A stretch of 64,000 nt of DNA from Ignavibacteriota bacterium (GTDB taxonomy: Bacteria; Bacteroidota; Ignavibacteria; UBA10030). Position numbers and translations under genes: made by a program. Numbering within the stretch: position 1 is the first letter of the stretch; each line of letters begins with the position of its first letter. A model generated the notes under the pieces. That model was not told the origin of the DNA, searched no databases, and saw only the letters and a list, made by a program, of their open reading frames with translations. Positions 4,483 to 30,837 of the stretch are shown piece by piece. The stretch spans positions 1 to 64,000 of the forward strand of contig CAVSHO010000011.1 of assembly GCA_963727825.1 (NCBI GenBank), read 5' to 3'.

Positions 4483-4630
4483 GGCTAACGGACGGGCGCT
4501 AAGCTGCGGCGTTGATAACTTTCCAAACACACAAAACGAAATAGGTTCATTCTATCAACTTTCAATTAAACACAAAACCTATGCACGCAATGTAAATCGC
4601 ACCCAGCTCATTCCGTCAGCTTGAGCGCCT
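4483..4630 (-). repeat. attC site 7, interrupted by two IS110-family elements (remainder 7362-7371)
   Basis: GGCTAAC...CAGCTTGAGCGCCT, then IS sequence; CTGGTTAGGC resumes at 7362. Confidence 0.93.
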
Positions 4631-4670
4631 CGTATGTTGAGTCTGTGACACTTATATTTGTATCGTAATT

Positions 4671-4857
4671 CATTGGCAAAGTCATAGGAGAGATAGGAGC
4701 GTCTAGATATCTTCCCAGAAGAAGAATATCGTTAACCAGATACTTCTCCCTATGACTTTGTGCTTCTCCAGAATCTGAACAGTACTTTGAGATCCATACT
4801 TCTTGACGTGGAATCCCGTATAACGCACGAGTCTAGATCATACAGAAGCTGCCAATG
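4671..4857 (+). ncRNA. Predicted bridge RNA of IS-A (target loop plus donor loop)
   Basis: Closing stem CATTGGC/GCCAATG; stem CAAAGTCATAGG/CCTATGACTTTG enclosing GAGCGTCT and TAACCAG (match attC); stem GCTTCT/AGAAGC enclosing ACAGTACTT and AACGCACGAG (match circle junction). Confidence 0.85.
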
Positions 4858-4895
4858 TTTCTCTTTTCTTAACCTCTATTTCAAGGAGCTTTACT

Positions 4896-5981
4896 ATGAA
4901 TATCTTAAAACAAACCGTCGGTATCGATGTCTCCTACAAAACTTTCGATGCCAGATTCGGTACCATCGATACTCAACAAGAAATCAACCTATCCGCCTCT
5001 AAATCCTTTAAAAACTCACAGGCTGGATTCAAACTCTTCCTGCGATGGCTTATGAAATTTATCCTCTCTAATGATATTCCCCTCGTCTTTGTGATGGAAG
5101 CCACCGGTGTCTATTATGAACACCTCGCTCACTTCCTCCTTGAGCACGGTTATCACCTCGCCGTCGTTCTACCCAATAAAATAAGAAATTATGCCAAATC
5201 CCTCGAATCTAAATCCAAAACTGATCCTATCGATGCCGCTACTATTACTCGATTCGGACTTGAACGCAAACTCTCATTCTGGACTCCACCTTCAGATACT
5301 CTCAAAACCCTACGCGACTTATGCAGGGAATATCATTGCCTCAAAACTAATATCACACAAATTAAGAATCAACTCCACGCTCTCAAATCTTCTTTCAAGC
5401 CTCACAAAGAGTCTTTCAAACGCAAGACACAACTCCTCATATTTCTCGAACGTCAGGTATCGCTTATTAATAAAGAACTCCATGCATTAGTTAAGACCGA
5501 GCCTGATCTGGCCCAACACCTCAAGAATATCAAAACTGCCAAAGGTCTCGGCGATATTACCATTCTCACCGTTTTAGCTGAGACCCGATGCTTTGAACTC
5601 GTCACCAATCAAAAACAACTTACCAGCTACGCTGGGTTCGACATCGTCTTTAACGACTCCGGCTTGAAAAAAGGAAAAACCTCCATCTCCAAAAAAGGCA
5701 ATTCCTTTATCCGTAAAGCTCTCTTTATGCCTGCCCTCTCTGCCTGTCGGGCTAATCCTCAAATGAAAAAACTATATCAACGCCTTGTCGCTAAAGGCAA
5801 AAATAAAAAACTTGCCATCATTGCCGTCGCCCGTAAATTACTCTTACTGATTTACACTCTCTGGAAATCTAATTCTGTCTATATCCCCAATTATAAACCA
5901 TTGCTCTCGTTGTTGTCCCTGAACAAATTTAAATCATTCGCCCCTGCTTGTTCTTTGACATATTTTCTCTATCGCTCTTGA
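4896..5981 (+). CDS. IS110-family transposase/recombinase (IS-A)
   Basis: GIDVS, VMEATG, KTDPIDA (DEDD RuvC-like), NDSG serine loop, KKGNSFIRKAL, AIIAVARKLL; RBS AAGGAG. Confidence 0.95.
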   Translation: MNILKQTVGIDVSYKTFDARFGTIDTQQEINLSASKSFKNSQAGFKLFLRWLMKFILSNDIPLVFVMEATGVYYEHLAHFLLEHGYHLAVVLPNKIRNYAKSLESKSKTDPIDAATITRFGLERKLSFWTPPSDTLKTLRDLCREYHCLKTNITQIKNQLHALKSSFKPHKESFKRKTQLLIFLERQVSLINKELHALVKTEPDLAQHLKNIKTAKGLGDITILTVLAETRCFELVTNQKQLTSYAGFDIVFNDSGLKKGKTSISKKGNSFIRKALFMPALSACRANPQMKKLYQRLVAKGKNKKLAIIAVARKLLLLIYTLWKSNSVYIPNYKPLLSLLSLNKFKSFAPACSLTYFLYRS

Positions 5982-6081
5982 CTTTTATCACAGTACCTGG
6001 ATATTACAAAAAAGGAACCTCCCGATTTCGTATGTTTAAGATTATCAAGGTCATTAACCAACAAAATAAAAGGAGGTTCCC

Positions 6082-7083
6082 ATGTATTACTCAGGTATAG
6101 ATTTGCATTCAGATAATTCTTACATCACCACAATCGATGAGAGTGGCACAATCGTAAAACGACAACGCCTCGAGAATAACGACGAACTTGTTCTCGATTA
6201 CTTCCACTCTCTGCCCGGTCCTCATCAGGCAGTCGTCGAGTCTACAACAGGTTGGTATTGGCTCAACGATCTCCTCGGCGATAACGGCATCGAGCTTGTC
6301 CTTGCTCATGCCAAATATCTCAAAGCCATCAGCTATGCTAAAGTTAAAACAGATAAAGTCGATTCGCAAACTCTCGCTACACTTTTACGACAAGGCCTTA
6401 TTCCACAAGCACACAAGATCAGCCGTGAACTCCGTGGATTACGCGATACCATGCGCATCCGGCTTAGACTCGTTCAACAACGAACCGCTTGCCTGCTGCG
6501 TCTTTATAGCATTTATGCAAAATTTAACGGCTCTGTCCCTGATCCCTATCGCTTCCAGCTGGCTGTATTAGAGCATACACGCAATACCTTCAGCGATCAA
6601 ATCCTTGCCTTAGAAAAGTCTCTGCATCCTGTCCTGATCCCTAACGACGACATCCAACGACTCTTGAACATTCCAGGTATCGGCAAGCTCTCTGCATTTA
6701 CCATTTACTTAGAAATCGACGGCATAGAACGCTTTATCTCTGATAAACACTTTGTCTCCTATTGCCGTCTCGTGCCTGCTGCTGATAACTCCAATCGCAC
6801 TGTGCATCACCGCTCAAGTAAAGACGGCAATAAATATCTTAAAATCGCTTTCACTGATGCCGCTGTGCATGCCATTCAATTTTATCCTGAATACAAACGC
6901 TTCTATCAGAAATTAGCTCGGCGCTCTTGTGAAGCAACTGCTCGAACCGTCGTTGCAAAAGAACTTGCGAAAATTGTTTTCTATGTCTTAAAGAACAAAA
7001 CACAATATAAAGGTCTCAAAGGACAGCCGATCAGCCGGCATAAATCTCAGCAGTGGCCGCGCCTCTCAAGCCCGGATGCCTAA
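6082..7083 (+). CDS. IS110-family (IS1111-type) transposase
   Basis: GIDLH, VVEST, KTDKVDS (DEDD), IPGIG, SKDGNKYLK. Confidence 0.95.
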   Translation: MYYSGIDLHSDNSYITTIDESGTIVKRQRLENNDELVLDYFHSLPGPHQAVVESTTGWYWLNDLLGDNGIELVLAHAKYLKAISYAKVKTDKVDSQTLATLLRQGLIPQAHKISRELRGLRDTMRIRLRLVQQRTACLLRLYSIYAKFNGSVPDPYRFQLAVLEHTRNTFSDQILALEKSLHPVLIPNDDIQRLLNIPGIGKLSAFTIYLEIDGIERFISDKHFVSYCRLVPAADNSNRTVHHRSSKDGNKYLKIAFTDAAVHAIQFYPEYKRFYQKLARRSCEATARTVVAKELAKIVFYVLKNKTQYKGLKGQPISRHKSQQWPRLSSPDA

Positions 7084-7329
7084 CTGGTAATCTTTATTAC
7101 CTTCGCCTGGATTGGGAAGAGAGTGCGCTGTGCCGTGGTAATATCTGGAATATCTCGCTCAACGAGATAAGTCCCGCTTTCACCCCGGGATAAATCCGTA
7201 AACTGGTTTGGACGGCATTGCTCCGGTAATCGTCTGTCTATTTGATAGAGAACGCGGCATCGGCACGGGTTCGGTCGTCAATAATTGTCAATGAACTCTG
7301 CATTCCGTTTGTACGGAACGCATCGGGCG
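7070..7329 (+). ncRNA. Predicted seek/bridge RNA of IS-B (also in the other three copies)
   Basis: GCCTAACTGG and CGCCTGG match the attC target; GTAATATCTGG and TAAACTGG match the circle junction; stems GCCCGGATGC/GCATCGGGC and TGCCGT/ACGGCA. Confidence 0.8.
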
Positions 7330-7371
7330 TATTTTATCTACTTGACTCTTTCCTTTTTAAACTGGTTAGGC

Positions 7372-8271
7372 GCCGTTTTATTAGTAATGCAGAAATATTC
7401 TTAATGATCTGGCAAATCCTTCCAGATTCGGAAATAAAGTATTTGAGTCGATATTCATTTTACCTAGGTCACGAATAATATCTGAAAGTACAAGATCGTT
7501 TGGTACAATGAATTTGATTAATGGTGGCAATTCATCGCTTGATTCGGCTGTCTCAAATTTATCGATAGATAAATTAATTGCGTTCTGATCATCAAATTCA
7601 ACAGACGAATGATTTAATGTTCCGCTAATATTTTCGTTTAAATGTCGAATTAATAATGTTGGACAAGAAAAGTACCCTTTTGCATTGAATTTCGTTCGTT
7701 TAATTGTCTTGGTTAGTCAAGAATAACACCTTTTTTAGGATTTATTCATTTTGTAGCATCTAACAAATCGTTTAACTCAATATAATCATTTAAGATTTGG
7801 TCAAAGGGATTTTTGGGAATACAATTGGTTTTCAGAGTCCATACTGCAGCTTCATCATTCGCTTCTTCAAGTGCAAAAAATGATTGTCGATATAAAATGA
7901 ATAACTCAAAATTCGACTGAAACGAGCTTTGTCTACATAATATTGGATAAAAGCCACCCACTCTAAGAATGTCCGTTTCACTGGGTATGGATTAATAATA
8001 CTACCACGATGGCATTTTCTTCTTGAACCAATGAGATTACTTATTCTACCTTCATCTTGTACTTGTTCTGGCTAAGAATATCCTGATGTATTGATCCAGC
8101 CATCTCGTTCTAATGAGGACATAATATCCCAACTTGCGAAATTCTATTGACGCTCGAAATACCCAGTTGTGGAAATTACTATTGTGATGACACAAGCTTC
8201 TCTGAATATTTTATGTATTTCAGATACTTTTGATATTTAAAAATTTTGTAGCTACATAATTAATAGCTGGC
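7372..8271 (-). pseudogene. Degenerate or ORF-less cassette
   Basis: 900 bp between attC cores with only short ORF fragments. Confidence 0.55.
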
Positions 8272-8462
8272 GTCTAACGGACCGGCGCTAAGCTGCGGCA
8301 CTGATAAGTTTCAATTTGCTGAAAACGAAACAAGTTCATGCTGATAACCAAATTAATAAATCTCAAAGTTATAGGTACTAAAAACTGAATAACAAAAACG
8401 ACAACCCACCACTAGCAATGCTTAACTGTACCCACGCTCATTCCGTCAGCTTGAGCGCCTGG
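8272..8462 (-). repeat. attC site 8, interrupted by IS-B (remainder 9824-9833)
   Basis: GTCTAAC...CAGCTTGAGCGCCTGG then ATATTAC. Confidence 0.93.
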
Positions 8463-9827
8463 ATATTACAAAAAAGGAACCTCCCGATTTCGTATGTTTA
8501 AGATTATCAAGGTCATTAACCAACAAAATAAAAGGAGGTTCCCATGTATTACTCAGGTATAGATTTGCATTCAGATAATTCTTACATCACCACAATCGAT
8601 GAGAGTGGCACAATCGTAAAACGACAACGCCTCGAGAATAACGACGAACTTGTTCTCGATTACTTCCACTCTCTGCCCGGTCCTCATCAGGCAGTCGTCG
8701 AGTCTACAACAGGTTGGTATTGGCTCAACGATCTCCTCGGCGATAACGGCATCGAGCTTGTCCTTGCTCATGCCAAATATCTCAAAGCCATCAGCTATGC
8801 TAAAGTTAAAACAGATAAAGTCGATTCGCAAACTCTCGCTACACTTTTACGACAAGGCCTTATTCCACAAGCACACAAGATCAGCCGTGAACTCCGTGGA
8901 TTACGCGATACCATGCGCATCCGGCTTAGACTCGTTCAACAACGAACCGCTTGCCTGCTGCGTCTTTATAGCATTTATGCAAAATTTAACGGCTCTGTCC
9001 CTGATCCCTATCGCTTCCAGCTGGCTGTATTAGAGCATACACGCAATACCTTCAGCGATCAAATCCTTGCCTTAGAAAAGTCTCTGCATCCTGTCCTGAT
9101 CCCTAACGACGACATCCAACGACTCTTGAACATTCCAGGTATCGGCAAGCTCTCTGCATTTACCATTTACTTAGAAATCGACGGCATAGAACGCTTTATC
9201 TCTGATAAACACTTTGTCTCCTATTGCCGTCTCGTGCCTGCTGCTGATAACTCCAATCGCACTGTGCATCACCGCTCAAGTAAAGACGGCAATAAATATC
9301 TTAAAATCGCTTTCACTGATGCCGCTGTGCATGCCATTCAATTTTATCCTGAATACAAACGCTTCTATCAGAAATTAGCTCGGCGCTCTTGTGAAGCAAC
9401 TGCTCGAACCGTCGTTGCAAAAGAACTTGCGAAAATTGTTTTCTATGTCTTAAAGAACAAAACACAATATAAAGGTCTCAAAGGACAGCCGATCAGCCGG
9501 CATAAATCTCAGCAGTGGCCGCGCCTCTCAAGCCCGGATGCCTAACTGGTAATCTTTATTACCTTCGCCTGGATTGGGAAGAGAGTGCGCTGTGCCGTGG
9601 TAATATCTGGAATATCTCGCTCAACGAGATAAGTCCCGCTTTCACCCCGGGATAAATCCGTAAACTGGTTTGGACGGCATTGCTCCGGTAATCGTCTGTC
9701 TATTTGATAGAGAACGCGGCATCGGCACGGGTTCGGTCGTCAATAATTGTCAATGAACTCTGCATTCCGTTTGTACGGAACGCATCGGGCGTATTTTATC
9801 TACTTGACTCTTTCCTTTTTAAACTGG
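8463..9827 (+). mobile_element. IS1111-type element (IS-B) copy 2
   Basis: Same ends, protein and non-coding region as copy 1; CTGG junctions in attC. Confidence 0.95.
8544..9545 (+). CDS. IS1111-type transposase
   Basis: Protein identical to 6082-7083. Confidence 0.95.
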   Translation: MYYSGIDLHSDNSYITTIDESGTIVKRQRLENNDELVLDYFHSLPGPHQAVVESTTGWYWLNDLLGDNGIELVLAHAKYLKAISYAKVKTDKVDSQTLATLLRQGLIPQAHKISRELRGLRDTMRIRLRLVQQRTACLLRLYSIYAKFNGSVPDPYRFQLAVLEHTRNTFSDQILALEKSLHPVLIPNDDIQRLLNIPGIGKLSAFTIYLEIDGIERFISDKHFVSYCRLVPAADNSNRTVHHRSSKDGNKYLKIAFTDAAVHAIQFYPEYKRFYQKLARRSCEATARTVVAKELAKIVFYVLKNKTQYKGLKGQPISRHKSQQWPRLSSPDA

Positions 9828-15157: not shown

Positions 15158-15316
15158 GCCTAACGGATGGCAAGTAAGCTGCGGCAACGAGAAGCCGCAA
15201 GTTGCTGAAAACGAAACAAGTTCATGCTGAAAAGTTTATTATTAAACATCTGAACCTCTATTAGCCATGCTTAACGTACTCACGCTCATTCCGTCAGCTT
15301 GAGTTGCTGGTTAGCT
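15158..15316 (-). repeat. attC site 12 (matches attC 2 apart from the core bases)
   Basis: Part of the duplicated cassette. Confidence 0.95.
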
Positions 15317-16186
15317 GGCGCAAACAAATGTTTCAGAATGTTTCAAATTAAAAAAGTCATAAATATATTTGACATTGATGTCGTCTCTATATAAGACATA
15401 TGCGTTGCCATCCCATCTGCTCATAATTGCAAAATGAAGTTTATTCATATCAAGAGCTTTGAAATAATCCCAAAGTGCAACTTTGTCCTGTTTAATATGT
15501 GAGTGTATCCAGACGCCTTGCAAATATTCTTTAGGCGAACGAGCGATAAATTTTTCGACTGTGTCCTTAAAGAGAATAGCCGAATTATTTATTGGAGGAG
15601 GAATTTGATTCACTCCAGCGTGAATGGAAGGAATTATTTGTTGCATATGTTCAAGCAAATCTTTTATACGATATTTGACATCTAAAAGGATTGGTGTATC
15701 AGATTTCGGTGTAAACAACCAATCAATGGTTCGATTTCCTTCGCCGAGTCTTGGAATTTCATATTGTGGTACTACACCATCTTGTATACGAACCAACGGA
15801 GCCAATTCGGCAAGCGTTATTAGATGTTTAGACGGATCTTTTAATCTGTTAATAAAACTAAGAATTTCCGGTTCCGTCAAATGTTTTTTAATTGCTCGAA
15901 TGCCCAAGTAAAAATCTTCAATTTCGGGAAACTGTTCTGAACCAATAAGGATATAATCCTCTGGCATTCTATCAAAATAATCTCCGTACTCATAACACCA
16001 CTTTTTTATTAGGTTATGGAAAAAGGCTGGTGTCATTTTGATTTCATTCGGCAATAAAATCAGAAGATCGTTTATTAGATCATCATGGTCACCTAAAGAC
16101 TTGCCAAAAGAGAAAAAAGCTTTGTCAAGCGTGGTAAGACCAGTGTAAAATATCTCAGGCAAAGCAGCTAAAAGTGTCATGGTCAT
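15311..16186 (-). CDS. Cassette hypothetical protein (copy 2 of 1197-2072)
   Basis: Identical translation. Confidence 0.8.
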   Translation of the reverse strand: MTMTLLAALPEIFYTGLTTLDKAFFSFGKSLGDHDDLINDLLILLPNEIKMTPAFFHNLIKKWCYEYGDYFDRMPEDYILIGSEQFPEIEDFYLGIRAIKKHLTEPEILSFINRLKDPSKHLITLAELAPLVRIQDGVVPQYEIPRLGEGNRTIDWLFTPKSDTPILLDVKYRIKDLLEHMQQIIPSIHAGVNQIPPPINNSAILFKDTVEKFIARSPKEYLQGVWIHSHIKQDKVALWDYFKALDMNKLHFAIMSRWDGNAYVLYRDDINVKYIYDFFNLKHSETFVCAS

Positions 16187-16209
16187 TTCCTTACTCAGTG
16201 ATTTGCGCC

Positions 16210-16362
16210 AGCTAACGGACCGGAGCTAAGCTGACGGCGGCGAACAGCCGCCGTAAGGTAGTTCATTGCGCGGACGTTCCGATCAGATGCGCTAAGTCCG
16301 TCCGACACCGCGCGGCGAAATCGTCGACGGCTATTTCCGTCAGCTTGAGCGACTGGTTAGGG
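16210..16362 (-). repeat. attC site 13 (atypical GC-rich centre)
   Basis: AGCTAAC...TAAGCTGACGG...CCGTCAGCTTGAGCGACTGGTTAGGG. Confidence 0.9.
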
Positions 16363-19619: not shown

Positions 19620-19807
19620 GGCTAACGGACCGGCGCTAAGCTGCGGCGCTGATAATTATCAAGTTGTTGAAAACGAAATGAGTTCACGCTGAAGCTTTCA
19701 AATTTACACAAGACCTATACTAGCCATGCTTAACGTACTAGCCCGCCGACAATTGCTTTTTAGTAAAGCCGGCGGGCGACGCTCATTCCGTCAGCTTGAG
19801 CGCCTGG
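19620..19807 (-). repeat. attC site 16, interrupted by IS-B (remainder 21169-21178)
   Basis: GGCTAAC...CAGCTTGAGCGCCTGG then ATATTAC. Confidence 0.93.
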
Positions 19808-21172
19808 ATATTACAAAAAAGGAACCTCCCGATTTCGTATGTTTAAGATTATCAAGGTCATTAACCAACAAAATAAAAGGAGGTTCCCATGTATTACTCA
19901 GGTATAGATTTGCATTCAGATAATTCTTACATCACCACAATCGATGAGAGTGGCACAATCGTAAAACGACAACGCCTCGAGAATAACGACGAACTTGTTC
20001 TCGATTACTTCCACTCTCTGCCCGGTCCTCATCAGGCAGTCGTCGAGTCTACAACAGGTTGGTATTGGCTCAACGATCTCCTCGGCGATAACGGCATCGA
20101 GCTTGTCCTTGCTCATGCCAAATATCTCAAAGCCATCAGCTATGCTAAAGTTAAAACAGATAAAGTCGATTCGCAAACTCTCGCTACACTTTTACGACAA
20201 GGCCTTATTCCACAAGCACACAAGATCAGCCGTGAACTCCGTGGATTACGCGATACCATGCGCATCCGGCTTAGACTCGTTCAACAACGAACCGCTTGCC
20301 TGCTGCGTCTTTATAGCATTTATGCAAAATTTAACGGCTCTGTCCCTGATCCCTATCGCTTCCAGCTGGCTGTATTAGAGCATACACGCAATACCTTCAG
20401 CGATCAAATCCTTGCCTTAGAAAAGTCTCTGCATCCTGTCCTGATCCCTAACGACGACATCCAACGACTCTTGAACATTCCAGGTATCGGCAAGCTCTCT
20501 GCATTTACCATTTACTTAGAAATCGACGGCATAGAACGCTTTATCTCTGATAAACACTTTGTCTCCTATTGCCGTCTCGTGCCTGCTGCTGATAACTCCA
20601 ATCGCACTGTGCATCACCGCTCAAGTAAAGACGGCAATAAATATCTTAAAATCGCTTTCACTGATGCCGCTGTGCATGCCATTCAATTTTATCCTGAATA
20701 CAAACGCTTCTATCAGAAATTAGCTCGGCGCTCTTGTGAAGCAACTGCTCGAACCGTCGTTGCAAAAGAACTTGCGAAAATTGTTTTCTATGTCTTAAAG
20801 AACAAAACACAATATAAAGGTCTCAAAGGACAGCCGATCAGCCGGCATAAATCTCAGCAGTGGCCGCGCCTCTCAAGCCCGGATGCCTAACTGGTAATCT
20901 TTATTACCTTCGCCTGGATTGGGAAGAGAGTGCGCTGTGCCGTGGTAATATCTGGAATATCTCGCTCAACGAGATAAGTCCCGCTTTCACCCCGGGATAA
21001 ATCCGTAAACTGGTTTGGACGGCATTGCTCCGGTAATCGTCTGTCTATTTGATAGAGAACGCGGCATCGGCACGGGTTCGGTCGTCAATAATTGTCAATG
21101 AACTCTGCATTCCGTTTGTACGGAACGCATCGGGCGTATTTTATCTACTTGACTCTTTCCTTTTTAAACTGG
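19808..21172 (+). mobile_element. IS1111-type element (IS-B) copy 3
   Basis: Same ends and protein; CTGG junctions in attC. Confidence 0.95.
19889..20890 (+). CDS. IS1111-type transposase
   Basis: Protein identical to 6082-7083. Confidence 0.95.
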   Translation: MYYSGIDLHSDNSYITTIDESGTIVKRQRLENNDELVLDYFHSLPGPHQAVVESTTGWYWLNDLLGDNGIELVLAHAKYLKAISYAKVKTDKVDSQTLATLLRQGLIPQAHKISRELRGLRDTMRIRLRLVQQRTACLLRLYSIYAKFNGSVPDPYRFQLAVLEHTRNTFSDQILALEKSLHPVLIPNDDIQRLLNIPGIGKLSAFTIYLEIDGIERFISDKHFVSYCRLVPAADNSNRTVHHRSSKDGNKYLKIAFTDAAVHAIQFYPEYKRFYQKLARRSCEATARTVVAKELAKIVFYVLKNKTQYKGLKGQPISRHKSQQWPRLSSPDA

Positions 21173-23652: not shown

Positions 23653-23838
23653 CCCTAACGGATGGCGCTAAGCTGCGGCGTTGATAATTTTCAAATTGCT
23701 GACAACGAAATGAGTTCACGCTGATACCTTTAAAATATACTAAACCGTTACGCGCCATGCTTAACGTACAAGCCCGCCGACAATTGCTTTTTAGTAAAGC
23801 CGGCGGGCGACGCTCATTCCGTCAGCTTGAGCGCCTGG
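23653..23838 (-). repeat. attC site 19, interrupted by IS-B (remainder 25200-25209)
   Basis: CCCTAAC...CAGCTTGAGCGCCTGG then ATATTAC. Confidence 0.93.
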
Positions 23839-25203
23839 ATATTACAAAAAAGGAACCTCCCGATTTCGTATGTTTAAGATTATCAAGGTCATTAACCAAC
23901 AAAATAAAAGGAGGTTCCCATGTATTACTCAGGTATAGATTTGCATTCAGATAATTCTTACATCACCACAATCGATGAGAGTGGCACAATCGTAAAACGA
24001 CAACGCCTCGAGAATAACGACGAACTTGTTCTCGATTACTTCCACTCTCTGCCCGGTCCTCATCAGGCAGTCGTCGAGTCTACAACAGGTTGGTATTGGC
24101 TCAACGATCTCCTCGGCGATAACGGCATCGAGCTTGTCCTTGCTCATGCCAAATATCTCAAAGCCATCAGCTATGCTAAAGTTAAAACAGATAAAGTCGA
24201 TTCGCAAACTCTCGCTACACTTTTACGACAAGGCCTTATTCCACAAGCACACAAGATCAGCCGTGAACTCCGTGGATTACGCGATACCATGCGCATCCGG
24301 CTTAGACTCGTTCAACAACGAACCGCTTGCCTGCTGCGTCTTTATAGCATTTATGCAAAATTTAACGGCTCTGTCCCTGATCCCTATCGCTTCCAGCTGG
24401 CTGTATTAGAGCATACACGCAATACCTTCAGCGATCAAATCCTTGCCTTAGAAAAGTCTCTGCATCCTGTCCTGATCCCTAACGACGACATCCAACGACT
24501 CTTGAACATTCCAGGTATCGGCAAGCTCTCTGCATTTACCATTTACTTAGAAATCGACGGCATAGAACGCTTTATCTCTGATAAACACTTTGTCTCCTAT
24601 TGCCGTCTCGTGCCTGCTGCTGATAACTCCAATCGCACTGTGCATCACCGCTCAAGTAAAGACGGCAATAAATATCTTAAAATCGCTTTCACTGATGCCG
24701 CTGTGCATGCCATTCAATTTTATCCTGAATACAAACGCTTCTATCAGAAATTAGCTCGGCGCTCTTGTGAAGCAACTGCTCGAACCGTCGTTGCAAAAGA
24801 ACTTGCGAAAATTGTTTTCTATGTCTTAAAGAACAAAACACAATATAAAGGTCTCAAAGGACAGCCGATCAGCCGGCATAAATCTCAGCAGTGGCCGCGC
24901 CTCTCAAGCCCGGATGCCTAACTGGTAATCTTTATTACCTTCGCCTGGATTGGGAAGAGAGTGCGCTGTGCCGTGGTAATATCTGGAATATCTCGCTCAA
25001 CGAGATAAGTCCCGCTTTCACCCCGGGATAAATCCGTAAACTGGTTTGGACGGCATTGCTCCGGTAATCGTCTGTCTATTTGATAGAGAACGCGGCATCG
25101 GCACGGGTTCGGTCGTCAATAATTGTCAATGAACTCTGCATTCCGTTTGTACGGAACGCATCGGGCGTATTTTATCTACTTGACTCTTTCCTTTTTAAAC
25201 TGG
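23839..25203 (+). mobile_element. IS1111-type element (IS-B) copy 4
   Basis: Same ends and protein; CTGG junctions in attC. Confidence 0.95.
23920..24921 (+). CDS. IS1111-type transposase
   Basis: Protein identical to 6082-7083. Confidence 0.95.
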   Translation: MYYSGIDLHSDNSYITTIDESGTIVKRQRLENNDELVLDYFHSLPGPHQAVVESTTGWYWLNDLLGDNGIELVLAHAKYLKAISYAKVKTDKVDSQTLATLLRQGLIPQAHKISRELRGLRDTMRIRLRLVQQRTACLLRLYSIYAKFNGSVPDPYRFQLAVLEHTRNTFSDQILALEKSLHPVLIPNDDIQRLLNIPGIGKLSAFTIYLEIDGIERFISDKHFVSYCRLVPAADNSNRTVHHRSSKDGNKYLKIAFTDAAVHAIQFYPEYKRFYQKLARRSCEATARTVVAKELAKIVFYVLKNKTQYKGLKGQPISRHKSQQWPRLSSPDA

Positions 25204-29606: not shown

Positions 29607-29690
29607 ACCTAACTATGATTAGACTGCACCCGGCAGCCTAACTCGCGTTTTAAGAGTGTTAGACCGCTGATTTCAGCCTAATATGCGTGT
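29607..29690 (-). other. attI site (crossover G|TTAGGT at 29613/29612) with upstream repeats
   Basis: Minus strand GTCTAATCATAG|TTAGGTGCC at the start of the first cassette with no attC arm beyond it; CAGCCTAA repeats at 29634 and 29674. Confidence 0.75.
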
Positions 29691-29877
29691 TTTGTATTAT
29701 AGACTGCGTACGCCGCAGTCCTCCGAAAAGATGCATGCTGTTAGTTTCTGTCCCTATATTCCTCTTGAGAGAATCCGCAACAGCCTAATCCCTTTCTTTG
29801 AAAATAACTTCTTTGTATTTTCTCTTAAGGTTTGCGCTAAACTATTGAATGTCTTTATCAATTGCAAGGGAAATATT

Positions 29878-30837
29878 ATGGCTAACGAAAAAATTCTACA
29901 ACAAGTCCACAATTGCATCCGTACTCTGCATCTTAGTCTTCGCACTGAAGAAGCTTATTGCAATTGGATCAAACGATTTATGAATTTTCACGCTCAAAAA
30001 AATGTGCACGCTATGCGTGAACCGCAGATAGAACAGTTCCTCACTTCGCTCGCCGTGGATGAACAAGTATCAGCATCTACACAAAATCAGGCGCTTAATG
30101 CGATTCTCTTTTTATACCGCGAAGTATTAAATGTGAAGATCGGACTCCTAAAAGATATAATCCGCGCAAAACGAACTGTGCGCATTCCTGTCGTCTTCTC
30201 CCGGGAAGAAATCCAAACTATTTTACATCAGCTCCAGGGAACGTCGGGACTAATTTGTTCGCTATTGTACGGAAGCGGAATGCGCTTATTAGAGTGTATG
30301 CAACTGCGCATAAAGGATATTGATTTTTTGAGGAAACAAATTATTGTCAGGGAAGGAAAGGGCGAAAAAGACCGGATAACACCTCTACCTGTGTCGTTAA
30401 TTCCTCAACTGGAACGGCAAATCGCCAGAGTAAAAGTGATACATCAGGAAGATCGCGCCGCTGGTTATGGCGATGTCTATTTGCCGGATGCTATTCGTAA
30501 AAAATTCCCCCGTGCGGCAAAAGAATTCATGTGGCAATACGTTTTCCCAGCTTCCAAGCGTTCAATGGATCCTATTACAGGCGCGATTCAGCGGCATCAT
30601 CTTGATGAAAGCGCTGTTCAGCGTGCCTTCAAACTTGCATTGCAAAAATCGAAAGTTACAAAGCAGGGAACTGTTCATTCACTCAGACATTCATTCGCAA
30701 CGCATGTGTTGGAATCAGGATACGATATCCGAGTTGTGCAGGAATTATTAGGACATAAGGATGTCCGAACTACTCAAATTTATACACACGTAATGAATCG
30801 CCCTGGAATTTCTGTCCGCAGCCCGCTGGATACATAA
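29878..30837 (+). CDS. intI: Integron integrase (tyrosine recombinase)
   Basis: SASTQNQALNA, LLYGSGMR, GKGEKDR, IntI-specific insert (VYLPDA..KKFP.A...WQYVFP...RHH), HSLRHSFATH, LGHKDVRTTQIYTHV. Confidence 0.97.
   Translation: MANEKILQQVHNCIRTLHLSLRTEEAYCNWIKRFMNFHAQKNVHAMREPQIEQFLTSLAVDEQVSASTQNQALNAILFLYREVLNVKIGLLKDIIRAKRTVRIPVVFSREEIQTILHQLQGTSGLICSLLYGSGMRLLECMQLRIKDIDFLRKQIIVREGKGEKDRITPLPVSLIPQLERQIARVKVIHQEDRAAGYGDVYLPDAIRKKFPRAAKEFMWQYVFPASKRSMDPITGAIQRHHLDESAVQRAFKLALQKSKVTKQGTVHSLRHSFATHVLESGYDIRVVQELLGHKDVRTTQIYTHVMNRPGISVRSPLDT

Follow-up and report, generated by a model that had tools for sequence, protein, structure and literature searches.

Why do two different transposable elements lie end to end inside a single recombination site of an integron? 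The question is raised by a locus of an Ignavibacteriota bacterium, whose 3.1-Mb genome is assembled in 14 contigs. The window analysed here is the first 64 kb of contig C11 (CAVSHO010000011.1), and at its positions 4483 to 7371 one attC site of a cassette array, attC7, is split by two insertion sequences (IS), here called IS-A and IS-B. An earlier reading of the same letters, made without database searches (the sequence-only reading), had described the pair as two RNA-guided recombinases stacked in an inferable order. Our analysis indicates that attC7 was very probably struck twice, by independent, site-specific insertions guided by bridge RNAs and aimed at the same sequence; the short target for which IS-A and IS-B are both programmed would account for their end-to-end position.

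Two IS110-family elements split attC7

The site reads, from left to right, GAGCGCCT (4623-4630), IS-A (4631-5998), GG (5999-6000), IS-B (6001-7365) and TTAGGC (7366-7371). Its features are as follows.

4483-4630, + strand: attC7 from its R' box through its L'' box; GGCTAAC at 4483-4489 is the R' side and GAGCGCCT at 4623-4630 the left target common to IS-A and IS-B
4631-5998, + strand: IS-A, an IS110-group element of 1368 bp with CCT repeated at both ends
4896-5981, + strand: IS-A recombinase gene, 361 amino acids (aa), with DEDD_Tnp_IS110 and Transposase_20 domains (PF01548 and PF02371)
6001-7365, + strand: IS-B, an IS1111-group element of 1365 bp flanked by repeated CTGG
6082-7083, + strand: IS-B recombinase gene, 333 aa, with the same two domains (PF01548 and PF02371)
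7365-7371, + strand: R'' box of attC7, GTTAGGC

Since CCT is repeated at the ends of IS-A and CTGG at those of IS-B, these boundaries can slide by 3-4 bp.

Both proteins, like that of a third element described below (IS-C), combine a RuvC-like DEDD domain with a C-terminal Tnp domain and belong to the IS110 family of DEDD recombinases. The D/E/D/D residues and the SK.G serine motif are visible in the translations of IS-A and IS-B. In comparisons with the PDB, the IS-A recombinase matched the transposases of ISCro4 (E 2.2e-31) and IS621 (E 3.6e-27), and that of IS-B matched the same two weakly (E 1.7e-5 and 2.4e-4, respectively). Between the two recombinases themselves, identity is 26% over 282 aa. 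With plasmid-borne relatives, identity reaches at most 46% for the IS-A protein and at most ∼35% for that of IS-B, many Klebsiella and Pseudomonas matches included; both are therefore new elements of known groups. Thus, the description of two different RNA-guided IS110-family recombinases stacked in attC7 was borne out by the sequence, the Pfam domains and the low identity between the proteins.

The copy numbers of the two elements differ. IS-A is present once in the genome, besides a 43-nt fragment on contig C1, and IS-B four times, in copies that are 100% identical and all lie in the array. The three other IS-B copies are the following.

8461-9826, + strand: IS-B copy 2, with native flank GAGCGCCT/GG in attC (a slash marks the junction here and below)
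19806-21171, + strand: IS-B copy 3, native flank
23837-25202, + strand: IS-B copy 4, native flank

All three are flanked by GAGCGCCT/GG on the left and by AAACTG/GTTAGGC on the right.

Guide segments of the predicted bridge RNAs

Guides were assigned according to the published geometry, in which a left guide repeats the top-strand letters that precede the core and a right guide is the reverse complement of those that follow it. IS-A holds a 265-nt non-coding region 5' of its recombinase gene, with these predicted segments.

4671-4857, + strand: IS-A bridge RNA region; an outer stem of CATTGGC and GCCAATG encloses two stem-loops, each with an internal loop (RNAalifold, nine relatives)
4696-4704, + strand: IS-A left target guide GGAGCGTCT, pairing with GAGCGCCT with one U.G wobble
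4733-4739, + strand: IS-A right target guide TAACCAG, pairing with top-strand CTGGTTA at 7/7 positions in empty attC and at 6/7 at the IS-B junction CTGGATA
4779-4787, + strand: IS-A left donor guide ACAGTACTT, matching the right end ACAGTACCT with one U.G wobble
4820-4831, + strand: IS-A right donor guide region ATAACGCACGAG, of which ACGAG pairs with CTCGT of the left end; the outer pairing is discontinuous

The non-coding region of IS-B (7084-7365, ∼280 nt) is located downstream of its gene, and its predicted guides are as follows.

7078-7087, + strand: IS-B right target guide GCCTAACTGG, pairing with top-strand CTGGTTAGGC with two wobbles and overlapping the recombinase stop codon
7104-7112, + strand: IS-B left target guide CGCCTGG (7104-7110) plus AT, together the native left junction
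7138-7148, + strand: IS-B right donor guide GTAATATCTGG, pairing with top-strand CTGGATATTAC of the left end
7199-7208, + strand: IS-B left donor guide TAAACTGG plus TT, together the right junction

The right donor guide of IS-A is the weakest of the eight assignments. The consensus folds, each based on nine relatives (that is, related elements in other genomes), place all eight guide segments in internal loops, bordered on the outside by a conserved stem and on the inside by a hairpin, and the stems of both folds show compensatory changes. The two predicted RNAs thus have what characterizes a bridge RNA or seekRNA, namely, target and donor loops, guides to both strands and covariation, and we infer that both are expressed. 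For their part, the AT and TT that follow the left guides of IS-B behave as the handshake guides described in PMC13626964, which are extra bases matching the recombinant junctions. In Rfam no matching family was found; the only hit, below threshold, was to Ms_IGR-7, an actinobacterial small RNA model, on the minus strand of the IS-B 5' leader, and it was treated as a chance match.

The two RNAs differ in the order of their guides. In IS-A the left target guide precedes the right one, and the donor guides likewise, while in IS-B right precedes left in both pairs. The same difference between the IS110 and IS1111 groups is described in PMC11187229 and PMC11208160. IS-A has the other traits of the IS110 group as well: its non-coding region lies upstream, its bottom-strand guide is 5' of its top-strand guide, and no long sub-terminal inverted repeat was found among the 25 longest pairs, which gave a 6-mer only. 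IS-B has those of the IS1111 group, with a downstream non-coding region, a top-strand guide 5' of the bottom-strand guide and a perfect 9-bp sub-terminal inverted repeat (6009-6017 and 7350-7358). This repeat is shorter than the usual 11-13 bp of IS1111 elements (PMC11187229), and the extensions beyond it are of 8 and 7 bp at the GG/AT boundaries compared to the 7 and 3 bp of the IS1111 criterion; within the 4-bp CTGG ambiguity, no split gives 7 and 3.

Among relatives, hypervariability is concentrated in the left-target-guide blocks of otherwise conserved RNAs. In 15 aligned IS-A-type RNAs, the sole hypervariable block consists of the three left-target-guide positions that face the three variable positions of attC, and neither the right target guide GTTAACCAG nor the adjacent AATATC changes in 14 of the 15 (those extending through the block). 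Scored against its own flank, the guide triplet is pairable at 34 of 45 positions, with 28.7 on shuffling. An alignment of 10 IS-B-type RNAs has CGCC, TCGC, CACC or GCGC in the left-target-guide block, between invariant neighbours, and in 9 of the 10 the left donor guide changes together with the right end (AAACTGG, AAAGTGG or AAAATGG), the exception being a truncated copy. The two guide strings that the sequence-only reading had picked out, CGCCTGG at 7104-7110 and TAACCAG at 4733-4739, are present and have this covariation behind them.

Two other candidates were rejected. AATATC (4725-4730), the reverse complement of the IS-B left end GATATT, could be taken for an adaptation of IS-A to the IS-B junction; it is, however, invariant in those relatives at empty attC sites whose region extends through it, and it forms the inner hairpin stem. 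CGCTCAA (7156-7162), whose reverse complement occurs within the left target, was discarded as an IS-B guide because it is a hairpin loop inside the donor loop that varies without relation to the target.

Both families are aimed at the same bases of attC

Relatives of IS-A, 78-91% identical to it, were found in 13 of 40 other genomes searched. All 14 of their left junctions read ...CT/CGTATG in attC arms, and all 9 right junctions read ACAGTACCT/GGTTAG, that is, empty attC. The programmed target of IS-A is hence the empty site, which IS-B uses too. Among the relatives of IS-B, the 18 listed left junctions, from 17 distinct places, are without exception attC arms ending in ...CT/GG. Position and strand are constant in these 18 and in the four copies of the window, so that IS-B shows the site- and orientation-specific insertion into attC that defines the IS1111-attC group. 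The relatives' junctions thus confirm that the guides of both elements are aimed at the same ∼14 bp of attC, as had been proposed, and both the flank GTACCTGG (5993-6000) beside IS-B and the 6/7 match of the IS-A guide to CTGGATA are as claimed.

The statement that IS-B "needs" CGCCTGG, on the other hand, proved too strong. One IS-B relative whose guide reads TCGC has nine identical copies, located in TTGC (five), CCGC (three) and TGCC (one) sites, although two of the copies share both flanks and may stem from one event. Two further relatives sit at sites with one and two unpaired left-target positions.

These data suggest how the stack could have formed. The common target would be the spacer between the L'' and R'' boxes, GAGCGCC-T/G-GTTAGGC, on the folding strand of attC. 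IS-A would address it with a 5' RNA carrying the left and then the right target guide, and IS-B with a 3' RNA that overlaps the end of its gene and carries the right and then the left one, different recombinases and differently built RNAs having presumably converged on one attC site. IS-A would recombine at CT and IS-B 1-2 bp further right, within TGG, and whichever came first would leave the core of the other and one complete half-site intact. After IS-B, the full IS-A left target and CTGG would remain; after IS-A, the full 10-bp IS-B right target and CCTGG. With such a geometry the second insertion would need only one tolerated mismatch, and both orders would give an identical sequence.

Several observations weigh against two guided insertions at a shared target. 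The guides are predictions, as is a hybrid promoter at the joint described below, and the region holds 9 promoter-like sites compared to 5.7 ± 2.5 in shuffled sequences. The match between the IS-A guide and its flank is only modestly above that of shuffles, 1000 of 20000 of which reach 34/45; the signal is modest because most sites carry one common variant. In four public runs of one study (among them X1, X3 and X4; stored as contigs of related populations and holding 61-77% of the sampled words), no listed contig spans the joint at 5998/5999. Finally, a point that speaks against IS-A as the first arrival in particular is that IS-B occupies, in this genome, 3 of the 5 other perfect CGCC sites and none of the 15 variant sites (one-sided hypergeometric p = 0.009), the IS-B-free variant sites including two TGCC sites with a single distal mismatch.

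Order of the two insertions

The insertion order is not inferable from the sequence; a stacked pair of this type does not record it. That IS-A came first has, in our estimation, slightly better than an even chance. The lean is slight and is due to IS-A being a single-copy element programmed for the empty site, while IS-B, with four identical copies, was evidently active recently. Since IS-A is programmed for the empty site, this history would cost it no mismatch. IS-B, whose target is GAGCGCCTGG/TTAGGC at an empty attC, would then have met ACAGTACCTGG/TTAGGC at the IS-A joint. There the IS-A end TACC is pairable with the IS-B guide CGCC at three of four positions, with one C.A mismatch and one G.T wobble, a score equal to that of five of the nine identical copies of the IS-B relative mentioned above. 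In IS621, half-matched substrates suffice for insertion in vitro and account for 47% of the non-target reads (preprint 10.64898/2026.08.31.748434).

The sequence-only reading had held that IS-B came first and that this could be inferred. As a history, the entry of IS-B into an empty attC7, followed by that of IS-A into the hybrid junction GAGCGCCT/GGATATT, is quite plausible, though we put it somewhat below an even chance. It would cost IS-A one A.A mismatch, at position 5 of the 7-nt right target guide. The site usage of IS-B in this genome, always at perfect CGCC left targets, speaks for it, as do the intact left target and first 4 bp of the right target (CTGG) that IS-A would find at the IS-B junction; IS621 naturally functions with a right target guide of 4 bp (PMC11208160). 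Set against this, the right junctions of IS-A relatives are all empty attC, the IS-A right target guide is invariant and without adaptation to the IS-B end, and two perfect empty sites (18291 and 27237) are still without IS-A. Moreover, IS-A is single copy with no other sign of recent activity, whereas IS-B made at least three recent insertions, and the IS-B family tolerates left-target mismatches of the size that the opposite order requires. The claim that this order can be inferred is thus unsupported, given that IS-A is programmed for the empty site and the IS-B family tolerates mismatches. Any other route to the stack is highly improbable.

The public sequences examined do not decide the order either. 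The cassette of attC7 (7365-8280) is absent from 15 other genomes of the genus, and a 31-mer from the R'' side of attC7 had no matches in metagenome contigs. In the contigs of the public runs, right junctions of IS-B run into other cassettes. X1 and X3 contain a joint from 4627 to 5996 that omits IS-A, with short sides of only 19 and 31 nt; it is no proof of an attC7 with IS-B alone, because the short side is near-identical to the flanks of the other three IS-B copies. X1 lacks cover at 4756-5895, none of the runs covers 7378-7700, and one X4 contig covers 4556-4700 at 100%, which comprises the left part of attC7 and the left end of IS-A.

Recurrence of the stack and a third element

A scan with a 17-mer spanning the junction returned 38 metagenome loci and 36 loci of the genome collection. 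In 73 of these 74 the match is due to chance, the taxa being unrelated and the similarity ending with the 17-mer, and one, L087, is real (L and a number denote hit loci). An 18-mer of the junction, with at most one mismatch, was found in 1 of 277 genomes of the order, the genome under study itself. Stacks are therefore rare.

L087 is a metagenome contig of 4856 bp that contains, in this order, the left part of an attC, IS-C (273-1792), CTTGAGCGCCT, IS-A', IS-B' and GGTTAGGT. The joint between IS-A' and IS-B' is identical to that of the window, while the elements themselves are 78.6% and 78.4% identical to IS-A and IS-B, respectively. The window elements are closer to unstacked relatives (84% for IS-A and 83% for IS-B), and thus the two stacks look like separate events.

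This recurrence bears on two other explanations of the joint. In one of them, IS-A and IS-B would form a composite unit: the IS-A machinery would pair the left junction of IS-A with the right junction of IS-B (...AAACT/GGTTAGG) and move both as a 2.7-kb circle, both stacks deriving from one old stack. Three of the four IS-A guide contacts would fit (left target, right donor and right target), the right target at 7/7 positions and so better than at the right junction of IS-A itself; the divergence from L087 is nearly equal for both elements, and modular circles are documented for ISPpu9 (PMC12288879). Nevertheless, the left donor guide of IS-A would lack a match, IS-B copies 2-4 occur without IS-A, the stacked elements resemble unstacked relatives more than they do their counterparts in the other stack, and the junction is confined to the genome under study among the 277 of the order and to one true match among the 74 scan loci. 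We regard such a unit as improbable.

The other explanation is an artefact of assembly, with IS-A and IS-B from different attC sites misjoined through repeats. IS-B is an exact repeat of four copies, the contamination of the genome is estimated at 6.55%, and no listed public contig bridges the joint. However, the joint falls exactly at the site-specific crossover, where the sequences share 5 bp (CCTGG), far below an assembler overlap; four identical repeats of 1.37 kb were resolved within one contig; and L087, from an independent metagenome, has the same joint. We consider an artefact hardly credible, and two independent guided insertions remain the best explanation.

IS-C, the left-most element of L087, is a third member of the IS110 family. 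Its recombinase of 356 aa, identified with Pfam, is 27% identical to the IS-B protein and 26% to that of IS-A. It occupies the site CCGTCAG/CTTGAGCG, 11 bp left of the IS-A and IS-B site in the same attC arm, and its downstream non-coding region holds CGCTCAAGCT and CCGTCAG, which match both sides of its own target. In L029, from another genus of the same family, a relative of IS-C lies 11 bp left of a relative of IS-B, which makes a double stack, L087 being a triple one. A search for IS-C in the genome under study, run without a positive control, was empty.

The IS-A and IS-B families also co-occur unstacked in arrays. L033, from the same genus, has an IS-A relative and an IS-B relative in neighbouring attC sites, ∼700 bp apart and on the same strand.

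Position of the insertions within the integron

The array that contains attC7 lies to the left of an integron integrase gene.

29683-30837, + strand: intI, the integron integrase gene; TIGR02249 at 447.9 bits (cut-off, 265), with Pfam Phage_integrase and SAM-like domains

There are 21 attC right arms in the window, of the form GCTTGAG-NNN-CT-GGTTAG, and the 22-mer consensus of the attC end has 15 matches at three mismatches or fewer, compared to none in 100 shuffles. Nearly all the open reading frames (ORFs) of the cassettes are on the - strand, divergent from intI. With an IntI that has its specific insert and adjoining cassettes bounded by attC, the system is an integron.

On the + strand, the attC boxes are RYYYAAC-like at the left and GTTAGGC at the right, and a single G bulges out of the right arm (CTT-G-AGC). 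The predicted fold of an empty attC of this type is a hairpin with one bulged G on its 3' arm. In the bottom strand, which is the one that folds, the L'' side is recognised by its extrahelical bases; from this rule, the attC fold and the orientation of ORFs and intI, it follows that the + strand is the folding (bottom) strand of attC7. The insertion point is then the short spacer between the L'' (AGCGCC) and R'' (GTTAGGC) boxes, both of which IntI needs in the folded attC, whereas the IntI crossover takes place in R', at the other end of attC (4483-4489). The elements separate two IntI-binding boxes, and the crossover itself is not split. The proposal that the integron and both elements compete for the same ∼14 bp was thus right in part: the site lies between boxes that IntI requires, but its crossover is elsewhere.

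Possible consequences of the stack

Split by 2.7 kb of insertions, attC7 would no longer be able to fold. A second predicted consequence concerns transcription.

5978-6005, + strand: hybrid promoter-like site facing the IS-B recombinase gene, with -35 TTGACT in the IS-A right end, a 16-nt spacer and -10 GATATT in the left end of IS-B

The site scores 9 of 12 matches in the promoter scan and has the same spacing in L087; as the total of such sites is not above chance, the hit is weak alone. TTGACT occurs near the right end of both elements, and on their own circles it would lie 17 nt from a -10 (TATGTT in IS-A and GATATT in IS-B). No such -35 precedes IS-B in the native attC flank. A promoter at the circle junction is known for the IS110 family (PMC11187229). 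Because the joint mimics the junction promoter of an element's own circle, stacked IS-B may be expressed without circularising.

A more far-reaching scenario can be modelled on this basis, although we consider it unlikely. Stacking would amount to a functional cross-activation between two RNA-guided transposons, in which stacked IS-B would constitutively make recombinase and bridge RNA and, working in trans, would be the master copy that gave rise to the burst of identical IS-B copies in perfect-match attC sites. At least three lineages (IS-A, IS-B and IS-C), with independently evolved guide RNAs, would then form a guild on one attC arm and interact via the half-sites and promoters that each of them leaves behind for the next.

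As to the proposal that IS-A blocks the excision of stacked IS-B, published systems give different indications. Flanks are required for circle formation by ISEc11 and ISEc21 (PMC11187229), and in IS621 all four guides contact the excision substrates (PMC13626964). Efficient excision of IS621 with mutated flanks, the flanks being dispensable, is reported in preprint 10.64898/2026.08.31.748434. In copy-out models the donor stays in place (10.1101/2025.10.25.684509 and the same preprint).

Remnants and other features of the elements and the array

Fragments of IS-A were found at several places. At C1:363255-363298 and in L048, from the same genus, left-end fragments end at element position 82, just past the left target guide, and continue into GGTTAAGG or GGTAAGG; the same fragment is present in one X1 contig. 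These are possibly truncated derivatives. In L047, from the same order, an IS-A-type left end (∼480-640) breaks off after the DNA of the left donor guide (ACAGTACT) and is directly joined to GGTTAGGC. It seems that the DNA between the true right end and a guide-coding segment resembling it has been deleted; guide-coding DNA may thus act as a pseudo-end.

Beyond the window, at ∼97770-97960 of C11 and 68 kb past intI on its opposite side, the last ∼60 nt of an IS-B right end stand in place of the L'' arm of a lone attC and lead into GTTATGT. This IS footprint is similar to the degenerate ones that IS1111-attC elements reportedly leave. In the IS-B leader, a perfect 9-bp inverted repeat (GGAACCTCC at 6014-6022 and GGAGGTTCC at 6072-6080) would, if it folds, sequester the ribosome-binding site of the recombinase gene. 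The sub-threshold Ms_IGR-7 match mentioned above falls on this stretch.

With regard to the array, neither strand of the cassette that owns attC7 (7372-8273) contains an ORF that reaches 100 aa; the longest, on the - strand (7746-7961), has 71 aa. Two copies of a 1074-bp cassette, 99.6% identical, lie at 1046-2119 and 15160-16233, and the attC sites at 19622 and 23655, which both bear IS-B, are ∼90% alike.

Discussion

Insertion of IS1111 elements into attC is not new. Tetu and Holmes (2008) and Post and Hall (2009) reportedly described an IS1111-attC group, including ISPa21, ISPst6 and ISKpn4, which inserts site-specifically, in one orientation and at one end of attC; several copies per array are said to be possible, and degenerate footprints to occur. 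IS-B differs from that group in its environmental host with an attC type of its own, and IS-A in belonging to the IS110 group; in addition, best plasmid matches of no more than 35% argue against a close kinship of IS-B with the ISPa21, ISPst6 and ISKpn4 clade. Like IS-B, ISKpn4 and ISPst6 have a seekRNA on the downstream side, in which the match to the top strand precedes that to the bottom strand (PMC11187229).

Divergent transposases at a single site have a precedent too. ISKpn4 and ISPa25, whose transposases are 46% identical, share the attC position and the guide stretches (same source). Both of these are IS1111 elements with similar RNAs, whereas IS-A and IS-B come from two groups, have reversed guide orders and RNAs at opposite ends, and are physically stacked. 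In Pseudomonas putida, ISPpu9 and ISPpu10 are two IS110-family elements of one genome with the same repetitive extragenic palindromic (REP) target; this target is not attC, and the accessible part of PMC12288879 describes no end-to-end stack. ISEc21, of the IS110 group, is guided into another IS, within IS3-family transposase genes (PMC11187229). Its guide is programmed for that other IS, while the guide of IS-A is programmed for empty attC and meets IS-B only as a near-match.

The predicted RNAs resemble that of IS621 in having two internal loops, each with a bottom-strand and a top-strand guide overlapping at the core, in the additional dinucleotides that follow the guides and agree with the recombinant junctions, and in the promoter at the circle junction. 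They differ from it in their cores, CT for IS-A and within TGG for IS-B, and in the reversed guide order of IS-B, which is typical of IS1111; unlike IS621, they are known from sequence alone. In summary, IS1111 elements in attC, divergent transposases at one site, two IS110-family elements on REP and an IS110 element aimed at another IS are already known. As far as literature searches show, what is new is an IS110-group lineage aimed at attC, its convergence, by means of mirror-image RNAs, with an IS1111-group lineage on one set of bases, a third lineage at adjacent bases, and physical stacks of two and three elements.

The two architectures of bridge and seek RNAs, IS110 and IS1111, have thus converged on the same 14-16 bp of an integron site, and a third lineage on the adjacent 18 bp. 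The natural variation of guides compared to that of their targets constitutes data on mismatch tolerance, which bears on the off-targets of editing tools based on bridge recombinases. For the integron itself, 4 of the 21 attC sites of the array are split between the L'' and R'' boxes, and the neighbouring cassettes should be frozen. If the hybrid promoter works, stacking would let one transposon activate another by simple means.

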